Source: Escherichia coli
GTDB taxonomy: Bacteria; Pseudomonadota; Gammaproteobacteria; Enterobacterales; Enterobacteriaceae
Assembly (NCBI RefSeq): GCF_003790525.1
Contig: NZ_CP033635.1
Strand: one strand, 5' to 3'
Length of the DNA: 64,000 nt
The number at the start of each line of letters is the position of its first letter. Positions within the stretch are counted from its first letter, which is position 1. The notes under the pieces were generated by a model. That model saw nothing but the letters and a program-made list of their open reading frames with translations, had not been told where the DNA came from and searched no databases. Made by a program: the position numbers and the translations under genes. Below are positions 16,636-51,915 of the stretch, piece by piece.

Positions 16636-16663
16636 GTCAAAAAAAACGCCGGATTAACCGGCG
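16636..16663 (-). terminator. intrinsic terminator downstream of fadD
   Basis: Minus strand ACGCCGG-TTAAT-CCGGCGT followed by TTTTTTTT. Confidence 0.7.
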
Positions 16664-16683
16664 TCTGACGACTGACTTAACGC

Positions 16684-18369
16684 TCAGGCTTTATTGTCCA
16701 CTTTGCCGCGCGCTTCGTCACGTAATTCTCGTCGCAAAATTTTTCCGACGTTAGATTTCGGTAACTCATCACGAAACTCCACCAGCTTCGGTACTTTGTA
16801 GCCCGTGAGCTGACGGCGGCAAAAAGTCACCAGTGACTCTTCGGTAAGCGATGGATCTTTTTTCACAACGAAGATTTTCACCGCTTCACCACTAGAGCCG
16901 GAAGGTACGCCAACAGCCGCGACTTCCTGTACGCCAGGATGCTGCATGACGACATCTTCAATCTCGTTGGGATAGACGTTAAAACCGGAAACCAGAATCA
17001 TGTCTTTTTTACGATCGACAATGCGCAGGAATCCTTCTTCATCCATCACCGCGATGTCGCCGGTGTGTAACCAGCCATTTTTGATGATTTCATCGGTAGC
17101 ATCCGGACGCTGCCAGTAACCCAGCATCACCTGCGGTCCTTTGACACAAAGCTCACCTGGTTGACCAGGTGGTACTTCATTATCATCATCATCCACCAGT
17201 TTGGCTTCCGTCGACGGCACCGGCAAACCGATGCTACCACTATGATAATCAATATCATACGGGTTAACGCTCACCAGCGGCGCACACTCGGTCAGGCCAT
17301 AACCTTCCAGCAGATACTGTCCAGTCAGTTTCACCCAACGTTCTGCCACCACTTGCTGAACAGGCATCCCTCCGCCTGCGGAAAGATGCAGACTGGAGAA
17401 ATCCAGCTGCTGGAACTCTTTATTGTTCAGCAACGCATTGAACAAGGTGTTAACGCCAGTGATAGCGGTAAACGGATATTTCGCTAACTCTTTTACCAAC
17501 CCTGGAATATCGCGCGGGTTAGTGATAAGCAGGTTCTGCCCCCCCAGTTCGATAAACAGCAGGCAGTTAATGGTCAGTGCAAAAATGTGATACAGCGGCA
17601 GCGCCGTCACCACCAGCTCTTTGCCCGGATGCAACAGCGGACCATAGGTCGCGTTAACCTGTTCCAGGTTCGCCAGCATATTGCGGTGAGTCAGCATCGC
17701 GCCTTTCGCCACACCAGTGGTACCGCCGGTGTATTGCAGGAAAGCTAAATCTTCCGGCACCAGTTCGGGTTTGACGTACTGCATCCGGTAGCCGTTGTGC
17801 AGGGCGCTACGAAATGAAATGGCATCTGGCAGATGGTATTTCGGCACCAGACGCTTGATGTATTTAACAACGAAATTGACTACCGTGCCTTTTGCCGTAG
17901 ATAGCTGATCGCCCATACGGGTCAGAATTACGTGCTGAACGGCGGTTTTATCAACCACTTTTTCCAGAGTGTGGGCAAAGTTAGACACGATAACAATCGC
18001 CGATGCGCCGCTATCGTTAAGCTGATGCTCAAGTTCACGCGGGGTATACAACGGGTTAACGTTTACGACAATCATCCCGGCACGCAAAATGCCAAACAGC
18101 GCCACCGGATATTGCAATAAATTAGGCATCATCAACGCAACGCGATCGCCTTTCTTCAGTCCCAACCCTTGTTGCAAATAAGCGGCAAACGCGCGACTGC
18201 GTTCTTCCAGTTTGCGGAAGGTCATCACCTCCCCCATATTCACAAACGCGGGTTGATCGGCGTAGCGCGCGACCGACTGCTCAAACATATCTACCAGAGA
18301 TTGATAACGGTCAGGGTTGATCTCCGTCGGAACGTCCGCGGGATAACGGTTAAGCCAAACCTTCTTCAA
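16684..18369 (-). CDS. fadD: long-chain-fatty-acid--CoA ligase FadD, 561 aa
   Basis: ORF 16684..18435; the 561-aa product begins [33 protein letters not shown]..., implying a TTG start at 18369; AMP-binding motifs present. Confidence 0.93.
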
Positions 18370-28650: not shown

Positions 28651-30207
28651 TTACTCATCTTCATCGTGCGCCGGTTGCTCTTTAACAATGCGAACCAGAT
28701 CAACACGATAATCATTGGCTTCAATGATGGTGATATGCAGTGGCCCTACATCAATCACATCGCCCACACGGGGAATGTGACCATTTGCCGAGATCACGAG
28801 GCCCGCGACCGTCGCGATATCATCGTCATCGGCAAGGTGCTCAACATCAAGCGCCTGCTGCAAGGCATGCAAATCTGTACCGCCTTTTACCAGCCAGCCG
28901 TCACCGTCGGTAATGATTTCCGGCGTTTCGTCAGCGTCCGGGAATTCACCCGCAATGGCTTCCAGCACATCCAGCGGCGTGACCAGACCTTGTACCACAC
29001 CAAACTCGTTGGTCACGATAACAAAGCTCCCGCGAGCACGACGCAGTACGCCCAGCAGGTTGATCGGATCGAGGGTTTCCGGGACGATAATCGCCGGAGA
29101 CGCCGAAGCAATCGCCGCCACATCAACGCCCTCTTCCAGCGCCACCAGCAGTTCTTTAGCACGTACGATACCGATGATTTCATCCAGTTCACCGCGACAT
29201 ACCGGGAACAGACTGTGCGGTGAAGAGAGCAGTTGCTCGCGGATTTCATCGACCCCGAGATTAGCGTCAACCCAGCTTATTTCACCGCGCGGCGTCATGA
29301 TCCCGCGCAGAGAACGCGACGCCAGCGTCAGTACGCCGTTAATCATGTAACGTTCTTCTTCGGCAAATGCACCTTCCGGGATCGGCATCGGCATCGGGTT
29401 ATCGGCATCGTGCTGGACATTGGCCTGACGTTTCCCGCCCATCAAACGCAGGATGGCATCGGCAGTACGCGCTCGCAGCGGCAAAGTCGACTGGTGACGA
29501 ATAAAGTTGCGACGCGCAATTTGGTTAAACACTTCGATGATGATCGAGAAGCCAATCGCGGCATACAGGTAACCTTTCGGAATGTGGAAACCGAAACCTT
29601 CTGCCACCAGACTCAGACCTATCATTAACAGGAAGCTCAGACAGAGCACCACCACCGTTGGATGCTGGTTAACAAATCGCGTCAGCGGTTTCGATGCCAG
29701 CAGCATAACCGCCATCGCAATCACTACCGCCGCCATCATCACTGGCAGATGGTTAACCATCCCTACTGCCGTAATTACCGCATCCAACGAGAAGACGGCG
29801 TCAAGGATGACGATCTGTGTGACGACCACCCAGAAACTGGCGTAGCCTTTACCGTGGCCGGAATCATGATCGCGGTTTTCCAGCCGTTCATGCAGTTCGG
29901 TTGTTGCTTTGAACAGCAAGAATATCCCCCCGAACAACATAATCAGGTCGCGTCCGGAGAAGGAGAAATCCATGACGGTAAATAGCGGTTTGGTCAGCGT
30001 GACCATCCATGAAATCAGCGACAGCAGCCCCAGACGCATAATCAGCGCCAGTGATAATCCCAGCAAACGCGCTTTATCGCGTTGTTTTGGCGGCAGTTTG
30101 TCAGCAAGAATGGCGATGAAGACCAGGTTATCGATACCCAGCACAATTTCGAGAACAACAAGCGTGAGTAGCCCCGCCCAAATCGAGGGGTCCATTAAGA
30201 ATTCCAT
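28651..30207 (-). CDS. yoaE: TerC-family/CBS-CorC domain inner membrane protein YoaE, 518 aa
   Basis: Full-length ORF; N-terminal TerC-like TM region, C-terminal CBS pair and CorC/HlyC domain. Confidence 0.93.
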
Positions 30208-30669
30208 GACAAGCTCCTGCTTAAGGAATAGCTATTCGACGCCAGAAATAATGCAGGCGTAACGACAAAATGCAAACGAAAGGTGCGGCATAAAGTGCCA
30301 GAAAGGCAGGCGTTAAAAGGCCTGATGCTGAAATGACGTCGGTGACGATCCATACTGCGGGCTACTGCCCTATACTCCATGGTTGTTAAACAGGAGTTAA
30401 ACATATCAGAGACACATCTGATTTGGCAAAGATTTACCTTCCTTTGCAAACGAATGTGACAAGGATATTTTACCTTTCGAAATTTCTGCTAATCGAAAGT
30501 TAAATTACGGATCTTCATCACATAAAATAATTTTTTCGATATCTAAAATAAATCGCGAAACGCAGGGGTTTTTGGTTGTAGCCCTTATCTGAATCGATTC
30601 GATTGTGGACGACGATTCAAAAATACATCTGGCACGTTGAGGTGTTAACGATAATAAAGGAGGTAGCAA

Positions 30670-35682: not shown

Positions 35683-35775
35683 GACAACTCCGGCAGGATA
35701 CTAAAGGCCGCAAGTGTAACGCGAATCACGCGGCGGGCAAATATCCGAACGCCAGGAGCGAAGATAAAGCAAAGT

Positions 35776-35803
35776 AAAAAGCCTCGCATTCGGCGAGGCT
35801 TTA
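35776..35803 (-). terminator. intrinsic terminator downstream of cspC
   Basis: Minus strand AAAGCCTCGCC-GAAT-GCGAGGCTTT followed by TT. Confidence 0.7.
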
Positions 35804-35847
35804 TAGCGAGATTGAAGCGTATTCACACTTCAGATCAGTGGATTCGA

Positions 35848-36057
35848 TCAGATAGCTGTTACGTTAACAGCTGCCGGACCTTTCTGGCCGTCCTGAATTT
35901 CGAACTCAACGTTCTGACCTTCAGCCAGAGTTTTGAAGCCATTACCCTGGATAGCGGAGAAGTGTACGAACACGTCTTTGCTGCCATCAGCCGGAGTAAT
36001 GAAGCCAAAACCTTTAGACTCGTTGAACCACTTAACCTGACCTTTAATCTTTGCCAT
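35848..36057 (-). CDS. cspC: cold shock-like protein CspC, 69 aa
   Basis: Full-length ORF; [22 protein letters not shown]... with RNP motifs. Confidence 0.97.
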
Positions 36058-36069
36058 TTGAAAAATTCC

Positions 36070-36213
36070 TTAGATTGTTTTCTTCGCCCGCAGGCATAAC
36101 ATAGATAAAACTGACACATTACTGCATGAGGCACCAATATAAGGCTCGGCAGAGAAGCGGTATTCAACGTCAACGTGTTTACTCAGGACTTCTTTACTGA
36201 AAATGCCACACAT
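36070..36213 (-). CDS. yobF: small protein YobF, 47 aa
   Basis: Minus-strand translation [47 protein letters not shown]; ends 12 nt upstream of cspC (yobF-cspC operon). Confidence 0.82.
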
Positions 36214-36882
36214 AAACAGAACTGTACCTCGTTTAACCCGAAATCTGTTATCACATACAACGTTAATTATGGCAAGCCATTTTTAAACATGTCTCGATCA
36301 GACGCACAAATCTCGATACGTCTTCCACTTTTTTTGCACACTTATGCAACGGAATACGCGCCGATATATCATTGTGCTTAACCTTGCCAGTTCAGGCAGA
36401 TACTTAAACTGACGTATTTTCTAACATAGTTCAATAAGTTCAGTTGTTCCATGCCAATGGGAGAAGTTATTACATAGTGCGTGCAATATCACATTTTCTG
36501 CTATGCAATGAATAAAAAGTTATATCACTTTTTCTCATAAAACAGTCAGTTAACGGCCATCAATCACCCCAAAGAGAAGTCAATCGCCAAAGGTATTGTA
36601 AATTTAAAATAAGAAAAATTGATGAATGCGCAAAAAAATCAAGAGAGAAACGTTTCGCTAATAAATAATACCACGCTTAATCACAAATCCGATGTAAACA
36701 TCCTAATAAATTAATGGGCTAAATATCTTTTTCTGATATCCCGTTACGCAAATAAATAATATGATAATTATTTGAAGTCAGACCAGAGTTTTAATTTGAA
36801 GCAGTTGCACCATGACAGTGCGTATAATCAGGATGAATTGAGTAACCCTTCAACGACGGGGTTACTCAAGATTGAGGAAGGA

Positions 36883-37244: not shown

Positions 37245-37388
37245 TCACCACGGGATAAACTGGTTAATGGCACAAATTCCGCTGAAAAATTGTACATCCT
37301 GATCGCACATCATGTTGAATACCTGCGCCCAAAGCAGCAAGCAAGCCAACACCACGACAACCAGAACGACCCATCGAAACTTTTTCAC
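37245..37388 (-). CDS. mgrB: PhoQ feedback inhibitor MgrB, 47 aa
   Basis: Minus-strand translation (GTG start) [46 protein letters not shown]; GGAG upstream. Confidence 0.88.
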
Positions 37389-37546
37389 TCCAATCTCCGT
37401 TTCACCTACCTTATGTCATTAAACTAGCATGCGTTAGTTAAACAGCGCCTAACTATGTCGATATTCGTGCTTTTTCAGAATGAGTCGCTTGCTTCAGCGC
37501 ATATTGCCGCTACGATTAAGCGAACATAAAAAGAGAAGAGGTTGTA

Positions 37547-37786
37547 ATGCGATTCATCATTCGCACAGTTATGCTGATAGCACTGGTATGGATAGGATTA
37601 TTACTCAGCGGATATGGCGTTTTGATTGGAAGCAAAGAGAATGCCGCGGGATTAGGTTTGCAATGTACCTATCTGACCGCCAGAGGCACCAGCACGGTAC
37701 AATACCTGCACACTAAAAGTGGTTTTCTGGGGATAACAGATTGCCCGTTGTTACGTAAAAGCAATATTGTGGTCGATAATGGTTAA
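37547..37786 (+). CDS. yobH: small secreted/membrane protein YobH, 79 aa
   Basis: Full-length ORF; N-terminal hydrophobic segment. Confidence 0.88.
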   Translation: MRFIIRTVMLIALVWIGLLLSGYGVLIGSKENAAGLGLQCTYLTARGTSTVQYLHTKSGFLGITDCPLLRKSNIVVDNG

Positions 37787-51591: not shown

Positions 51592-51725
51592 CAATATTTT
51601 CCTCCCGCGCTAAAGATCACATAATCTTAACAAGAATGTTAAAAAACGCTGGACTCAGACAGTAGAGTGTGTGTTATGGTTGACTATAAAGTCAGCGAAG
51701 GGAATGCTTCTGGCTTTTAACAGAT

Positions 51726-51828
51726 AAAAAGAGACCGAACACGATTCCTGTATTCGGTCCAGGGAAATGGCTCTTGGGAGAGAGCCGTGCGCTAAAAGTT
51801 GGCATTAATGCAGGCTTAGTTGCCTTGC
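51726..51828 (-). ncRNA. sdsR: small regulatory RNA SdsR (RyeB)
   Basis: Minus strand reads GCAAGGCAACUAAGCCUGCAUUAAUGCCAACUUUUAGCGCACGGCUCUCUCCCAAGAGCCAUUUCCCUGGACCGAAUACAGGAAUCGUGUUCGGUCUCUUUUU, matching remembered SdsR including its 3' terminator hairpin and U-tail; sigma-S-type -10 (CTATTCTTAA) just upstream. Confidence 0.85.
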
Positions 51829-51915
51829 TCTTTAAGAATAGATGACGACGCCAGATTTTCCAGTTTGCGTGCAAAATGGTCAATAAAAAGCGCGGTGGTC
51901 ATCAGCTTAAATGTT

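Follow-up and report, generated by a model that had tools for sequence, protein, structure and literature searches.

The mgrB Upstream Region of Escherichia coli: A Very Probable PhoP Box of Canonical Spacing and a Second GTTTAA within the -10 Element

Introduction

The gene mgrB is a textbook target of the response regulator PhoP, and its product acts as a feedback inhibitor of PhoQ. In E. coli, PmgrB(-yfp) is a PhoP-regulated reporter that responds to Mg2+ (Lippa and Goulian 2009, PMC2789325). The promoter has been dissected experimentally in Salmonella, where the gene is called yobG and the site ACAGTTACTCCTGGTTTAA, in direct orientation, was revealed by DNase footprinting with PhoP-P (Zwir et al. 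2012, PMC3335776). In this promoter, the box lies 12 nt from a -10 element of sequence TAATTT, S1 mapping placed the transcription start 5 nt from the -10 element and 26 nt of leader ahead of the gene, and the transcript, which is PhoP-dependent, was found only in the wild type at low Mg2+ (PMC3335776). Related information is available for Shigella flexneri, in which the site equivalent to that of E. coli yoaE has been footprinted and yoaE is PhoP-regulated; a genome scan with a strict motif returned yoaE, mgtA, phoP, and yrbL in that organism, and mgrB is absent from the main text of the report (PMC5775216). Moreover, E. coli K-12 evolved under trimethoprim acquired insertion sequences upstream of mgrB, namely IS5 at -46 and IS1 at -29, -23, and -21 (PMC8483737).

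The locus considered here lies on the minus strand of a 64-kb window of E. coli DNA, the window being the whole stretch that was analysed, and its upstream region is a known, ordinary PhoP-dependent and magnesium-responsive promoter. An original prediction, made from the letters of the window, quoted the minus-strand sequence upstream of mgrB, which matches the window exactly, and pointed to two GTTTAA elements reminiscent of PhoP half-sites. Both copies are present, at 37443..37438 and 37424..37419 on the minus strand, and the prediction was right that their spacing does not fit the 5-nt gap of PhoP boxes, as they lie 19 bp apart from start to start. The exact PhoP box had been left uncertain on this account. 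Here, the box, the -10 element, the leader, and the start codon are described by comparison with footprinted sites and with orthologous loci.

Locus Identity and Conservation

Many RefSeq E. coli chromosomes match the 601-bp stretch around these elements with 100% identity. The stretch was found in 5,423 of 5,426 complete genomes, and in the matching RefSeq chromosomes it is annotated with yobH, mgrB, and yebO, a synteny that is intact in the window. The mgrB coding sequence (37245..37388, minus strand) comprises 47 amino acids plus the stop codon and matches the MgrB family PF13998 with 66.3 bits against a cut-off of 27; the product has the features of this family, that is, a small membrane peptide with the conserved C-terminal ...IPW region. 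The promoter core and the coding sequence are those of K-12 b1826, and over the 331-bp stretch that covers the promoter and the mgrB coding sequence, a single base differs from K-12 MG1655, far upstream of the promoter core.

Within the species, the mgrB promoter is present in 5,422 of 5,426 genomes. In about 2,300 of these 5,422, the 90-bp promoter and leader has a single base that is different from the window, and the PhoP box and -10 element were unaltered in the E. coli variants examined. Position 37400, two bases 5' of the mgrB GGAG, is a common A/G polymorphism in E. coli, and the G allele was found in all three variants examined.

Orthologous loci were retrieved by searching species-representative genomes with a degenerate nucleotide pattern designed on the conserved peptide CDQDVQFF. 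This gave 120 matches. Usable mgrB loci numbered 118 and covered more than 30 genera of Enterobacteriaceae; the other two, in a member of the Parachlamydiales (L089) and in Pseudoalteromonas (L102), were without the MgrB N-terminus and were taken as chance matches. The 114 distinct upstream regions were aligned ungapped and anchored on a single NGTTTA located 47-55 nt before the start codon, an anchoring that makes the GTTTA block invariant by construction. A homologous-protein search for distant MgrB homologues yielded no more than close relatives and E. coli variants with frameshifts.

The PhoP Box

The region upstream of mgrB reads, on the minus strand, TAGTTA (37455-37450), GGCGC, TGTTTA (37444-37439), ACTAACGCA-TGC (37429-37427), TAGTTT (37426-37421), AATGA, C (37415) ATAAGG and, further downstream, GGAG (37398-37395), ATTGGA, and GTG (37388). 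Two direct-repeat hexamers 5 nt apart, the 6-5-6 geometry of PhoP boxes, are thus found at 37455..37439. Half-site 2, TGTTTA (37439..37444), agrees with the consensus (T/G)GTTTA at all six positions, is conserved in the orthologues, and includes the first GTTTAA. Half-site 1, TAGTTA (37450..37455), lies 11 bp upstream of it and is an imperfect first repeat of the S2 type, with four of six positions in agreement with (T/G)GTTTA and five of six with the S2 variant (T/C)ATTTA. The 5-nt spacer GGCGC (37445..37449) has a length that is fixed in nearly all orthologues and a sequence that varies. The box is in direct orientation and ends 12 nt (ACTAACGCATGC) before TAGTTT, in the place of a -35 element; the -35 position itself is occupied by GGCGCT, which matches TTGACA at about one position in six. 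The uncertainty about the register can thus be settled in favour of TAGTTA-GGCGC-TGTTTA, with the canonical 5-nt gap, the imperfect upstream half-site having been missed in the first reading. Since its first repeat is TAGTTA, this box also escapes a strict (T/G)GTTTA-N5-(T/G)GTTTA scan.

Three lines of evidence bear on this assignment. Firstly, the footprinted box of Salmonella yobG, a comparison proposed in the original prediction, aligns base for base with the E. coli sequence, and TAGTTA is the counterpart of CAGTTA in that box. Secondly, a position weight matrix (PWM) built from 24 footprinted Salmonella PhoP boxes, with yobG excluded, gave 8.9 bits to the 19-mer ATAGTTAGGCGCTGTTTAA, which ranks 41st among 127,964 positions of the window; the matrix alone is not decisive, as 40 other positions in the 64-kb window score equal or higher. 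With the same matrix, the two alternative registers, drawn on the second GTTTAA or on its frame, scored -2.1 and -4.9 bits. The composite pattern GTTA-N5-KGTTTA-N9-TGNTANNNT had a single match in the 64 kb and none in 100 shuffles. Thirdly, the 114 upstream regions share the architecture xAGTTA-N5-(G/T)GTTTA, 12 nt, and an extended -10 element (TGnTAnnnT). Half-site 1, 11 bp upstream of the anchor, has the form xAGTTA, in which the last A is invariant, the G is present in 102 of the 114 sequences, and T in 111; half-site 2 is (G/T)GTTTA in 108 and GTTTA in 114 of 114. The 12-nt interval between box and -10 element is fixed in all 114 aligned sequences, and its last three bases are TGn, with TG in 110. 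Taken together, the matrix, the alignment, and the Salmonella footprint make it very probable that TAGTTA-GGCGC-TGTTTA is the PhoP box of E. coli mgrB, with canonical spacing. A full-text literature search for the sequence of this box returned no match.

Ten loci of the Citrobacter freundii complex (L002, L005, L016, L023, L030, L044, L067, L080, L081, and L084) have a proximal box of sequence CAGTTA-ACGCTG-GGTTTA, in which either the spacer is apparently 6 nt long or the first repeat is shifted to AGTTAA; the same ten loci have a longer leader with a duplicated GGAG.

Insertion sequences give a further view of the register. In FXCREC035 (L124, NZ_CM135826.1), a carbapenem-resistant urinary E. 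coli isolate, genome comparison places a natural IS5 insertion at CTAA (37434..37437, minus strand), directly after the PhoP box and between the box and the extended -10 element. This is the same site as that of -46::IS5 in the laboratory-evolved K-12, and it falls between the two GTTTAA copies. The PhoP site meant by the authors of that work must therefore lie upstream of -46, in agreement with a box at -67..-51.

The insertion site is also relevant to the reading in which the two GTTTAA elements are themselves both half-sites, separated by an atypical 13-nt gap with a 19-bp period. Both copies do carry a perfect GTTTA core in the same orientation. However, the insertion at -46 splits them, although its description places it downstream of the PhoP site, and a period of 19 bp corresponds to about 1.8 helical turns, which would place the sites on different faces of the DNA. 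No footprinted box in the list of Zwir 2012 (PMC3335776) has this geometry, and the first copy has a canonical partner 5 nt upstream. As for the second copy, it coincides with the invariant TAnnnT positions of the -10 element and is missing from E. albertii and from 112 of 114 orthologues. This reading is thus very improbable. Regarding the original prediction, a PhoP site in the mgrB promoter does appear to be present, and the upstream GTTTAA belongs to it as part of TGTTTA (37444..37439); the part that does not stand is the downstream copy, which overlaps the -10 element, so that the site is not built from the two elements.

Another register can be drawn from the same half-site, with a box TGTTTA-ACTAA-CGCATG (37444..37428) and a -10 element CATAAG (37415..37410) located 12 nt downstream. 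This arrangement obeys the 12-nt rule, and CATAAG resembles CATAAT, but its box scores -2.1 bits, the hexamer CGCATG is no half-site and instead contains the TG that is conserved in the extended -10 element, and the invariant TAnnnT lies 11 bp further upstream. Moreover, conservation of CATAAG is confined to Escherichia, Salmonella, and Citrobacter, and the S1-mapped transcription start of Salmonella falls within it, all of which leaves this register with scarcely any credibility.

Upstream of the region discussed so far, at 37515..37533 on the minus strand and about 100 nt upstream of the mgrB transcription start, the matrix finds a 9.9-bit match, CTTTTTATGTTCGCTTAAT. It covers the ribosome-binding region of yobH, just upstream of the divergent yobH start codon at 37547, and is probably a T-rich chance match.

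The -10 Element and the Second GTTTAA

Twelve nucleotides downstream of the box TAGTTA-GGCGC-TGTTTA, the sequence TGcTAGTTT (37429..37421) has the form of an extended sigma-70 -10 element, that is, a TG located one base before TAnnnT. The TGn extension is TGC (37427..37429), and its TG occurs in 110 of the 114 orthologues; the hexamer is TAGTTT (37421..37426), and in the TAnnnT pattern the A and the last T are invariant among the 114 sequences, whereas the first T is found in 105. The commonest hexamers in the alignment are TAACCT (44 sequences), TAATTT (22), and TATCCT (9), and TAATTT is the -10 element of E. albertii, Salmonella, and many Citrobacter. A sigma-70 promoter scan called no promoter in the mgrB upstream region, a result that is expected because the promoter is activator-dependent and without a -35 element.

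The second GTTTAA (37424..37419) consists of the last four bases of TAGTTT and the next two. The word is not enriched in the window, where it occurs 36 times, as compared with 36.6 +/- 6.1 in shuffles, and the probability of a second copy within 40 nt is about 0.01; the GTTTAA pair is real but makes no meaningful repeat. GTTTA in the register of the second copy is found only in the window and in one other Escherichia lineage (L094), i.e., in 2 of 114 sequences, and E. albertii has an identical PhoP box, TAATTT as its -10 element, and no second GTTTAA. On this alignment, the second GTTTAA arose recently as a side effect of an A-to-G change in the third position of the -10 hexamer and is not a conserved regulatory site.

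A functional role for this change has to be considered nonetheless. The Escherichia-specific G, which turns TAATTT into TAGTTT, could create an extra half-site, TAGTTTAA, at which PhoP-P at high levels would compete with RNA polymerase and cap mgrB transcription. Secondary PhoP boxes that overlap the -10 element and are predicted to be repressive have been described at other promoters, and the second box of ugtL, AATAATACTTTTAGTTTAA, ends in the same AGTTTAA (PMC3335776); the -10 change is, in addition, lineage-specific. These parallels are outweighed by the score of the corresponding 19-mer register (-4.9 bits), the partner hexamer of which, TAACGC, is unlike a half-site, and by the lack of conservation outside E. 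coli and one sister lineage. Furthermore, among PhoP reporters in E. coli, that of mgrB is reported to be the brightest (PMC2789325), which does not point to self-limitation, and a chance origin is plausible at P ~0.01 per promoter. A capping half-site is thus unlikely, and the second GTTTAA is better regarded as part of the -10 element.

Transcription Start, Leader, and Start Codon

By homology to the S1 mapping in Salmonella, the transcription start of E. coli mgrB is predicted at C37415 or A37414 (37414..37415, minus strand). The two Salmonella values, a 26-nt leader and a distance of 5 nt from the -10 element, both land on the C of the conserved CATAAG, and a moderately conserved cAt is found 6-8 nt past the -10 element in the alignment of 114 sequences. 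Because E. coli has one extra leader base as compared with Salmonella, its 5' leader, as read from sequence and alignment, would comprise about 27 nt (37389..37415). The E. coli Cappable-seq supplement of transcription start sites has no entry for the mgrB position. As for RNA elements, the leader has no significant predicted structure (z = -0.10), and no Rfam family matches the mgrB region. Elsewhere in the window, Rfam matches at the gathering score comprise SraC/RyeA with the antisense SdsR/RyeB (51722..51866), sroD (16640..16725), and a cspA-type thermoregulator leader on cspC (35773..36233).

Initiation of mgrB translation at GTG (plus-strand CAC at 37386..37388), with GGAG upstream, had also been proposed in the original prediction and is supported. 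The same GTG is the annotated start in RefSeq and in K-12, where the coding sequence of b1826 (1908623..1908766) begins at 1908766, and likewise in three other RefSeq records. The Shine-Dalgarno sequence GGAG (37395..37398, minus strand) ends 6 nt before the start codon, a spacing of about 6 nt that is conserved in most orthologues. An in-frame TGA is located 10 codons upstream, so that the GTG is the first possible start, and no in-frame ATG follows until codons 26 and 27, which fall within the transmembrane segment or beyond it. By position, Shine-Dalgarno spacing, and conservation from the start codon onwards, the sequence thus has the properties of a GTG-initiated gene.

Of the 118 orthologous loci, which represent more than 30 genera, 117 have a GTG followed by K/R-K. 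The single exception (L113) appears to stem from a fixed 81-nt offset that landed one base off, as the sequence has a GTG one base further upstream. An upstream in-frame ATG is present in 10 of 114 sequences and in none of the other 104; in three Mangrovibacter loci, an in-frame ATG directly precedes the mgrB GTG. The leader around the essentially invariant GTG is near saturation with substitutions, and adjacent positions vary freely. It is conceivable, as a tentative suggestion from this pattern, that the near-invariant GTG reflects selection for a weak start that sets the gain of the MgrB-PhoQ feedback. If this were the case, an ATG allele would over-repress PhoQ/PhoP.

Proposed Mechanism and Significance

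In the mechanism proposed for this promoter, a dimer of PhoP-P would bind head-to-tail to TAGTTA-GGCGC-TGTTTA, which stands in place of a -35 hexamer. As the end of the box lies exactly 12 nt upstream of the extended -10 element TGc-TAGTTT (37429..37421), the bound PhoP could recruit RNA polymerase to an otherwise weak promoter, at which the contacts of the polymerase would come from TGn and an imperfect hexamer. This class II-like arrangement would correspond to architecture I of Zwir et al. Transcription would start at C37415/A37414 and produce a leader of about 27 nt, followed by translation from the GTG at 37388, 6 nt after GGAG, and the MgrB product inhibits PhoQ, closing the feedback. 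PhoP binding, the exact transcription start, and the Mg2+ dependence in E. coli are here inferred from the Salmonella orthologue and the E. coli literature.

Insertions in the mgrB promoter that abolish expression are the basis of colistin resistance in Klebsiella and of trimethoprim tolerance in E. coli, and colistin resistance as a clinical consequence is known, in the cited literature, mainly from Klebsiella. The true register, with the box at 37455..37439 and the -10 element at 37426..37421, allows a correct reading of promoter mutations and IS insertions in clinical isolates. Beyond the accuracy of annotation, the significance of these results is small, and the practical lesson is methodological: a chance GTTTAA inside a -10 element can pass for the partner half-site of PhoP when a strict scan misses the true one.

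Comparison with Known Systems

Among PhoP-regulated promoters, those of mgtA, phoPQ, and yrbL, which belong to architecture I, and that of yoaE resemble the mgrB promoter in that a direct 6-5-6 repeat is located 11-12 nt from the -10 element and replaces the -35 element. Unlike the boxes of these four promoters, in which the first repeat is (T/G)GTTTA, the mgrB box begins with TAGTTA. The yoaE (mgpA) box, ATGTTTAACTCCTGTTTAA, is found in the same window at 30386..30404 on the minus strand, 7 kb from mgrB, and has the textbook form TGTTTA-N5-TGTTTA. With 13.7 bits, it is the third-best PWM match in the window. The box is situated between yoaE and manX, with TATAGG 12 nt downstream and the yoaE start, at 30207, at a distance of about 180 nt in the same direction.

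In Klebsiella pneumoniae (L096), mgrB has a comparable organization, with the box CAGTTAGCCGCGGTTTA, an interval of 12 nt, the extended -10 element TGcTATCCT, and a GTG start, and insertion sequences between the box and the gene occur in both K. pneumoniae and E. coli; the hexamer and leader sequences differ between the two species.

The yobG gene of Salmonella enterica, the promoter of which is of architecture II, is orthologous to E. coli mgrB and shares with it the synteny yobH-mgrB-yebO. In both promoters, the proximal box is in direct orientation, with a first repeat that is imperfect and a second that follows the consensus, and lies 12 nt from a weak -10 element; the TG extension, GGAG, the GTG start, and a leader length of about 26-27 nt are likewise common to the two. 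They differ in the -10 hexamer, TAATTT in Salmonella and TAGTTT in E. coli, the G at position 3 of the latter creating the spurious second GTTTAA. They also differ further upstream, as Salmonella has a second, reverse-oriented and footprinted box at -62, whereas its E. coli equivalent is degraded. The corresponding block, GAATCATTCCTAAAAA, is conserved in Salmonella, Citrobacter, Klebsiella, and Enterobacter and has decayed in E. coli, where a degenerate remnant at 37470..37488 on the plus strand aligns to Salmonella GTTTTTAGGAATGATTCAC and scores -4.8 bits in the window and -3.3 in K-12, as compared with 9.0 in Salmonella; the sole difference between the window and K-12 in the 331 bp (T vs. 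C at 37479, minus strand) is located in the spacer of this remnant. By the PWM, the second distal PhoP box that defines architecture II is lacking in E. coli, and the sequence comparison suggests that the E. coli mgrB promoter may function as a single-box promoter similar to those of architecture I.
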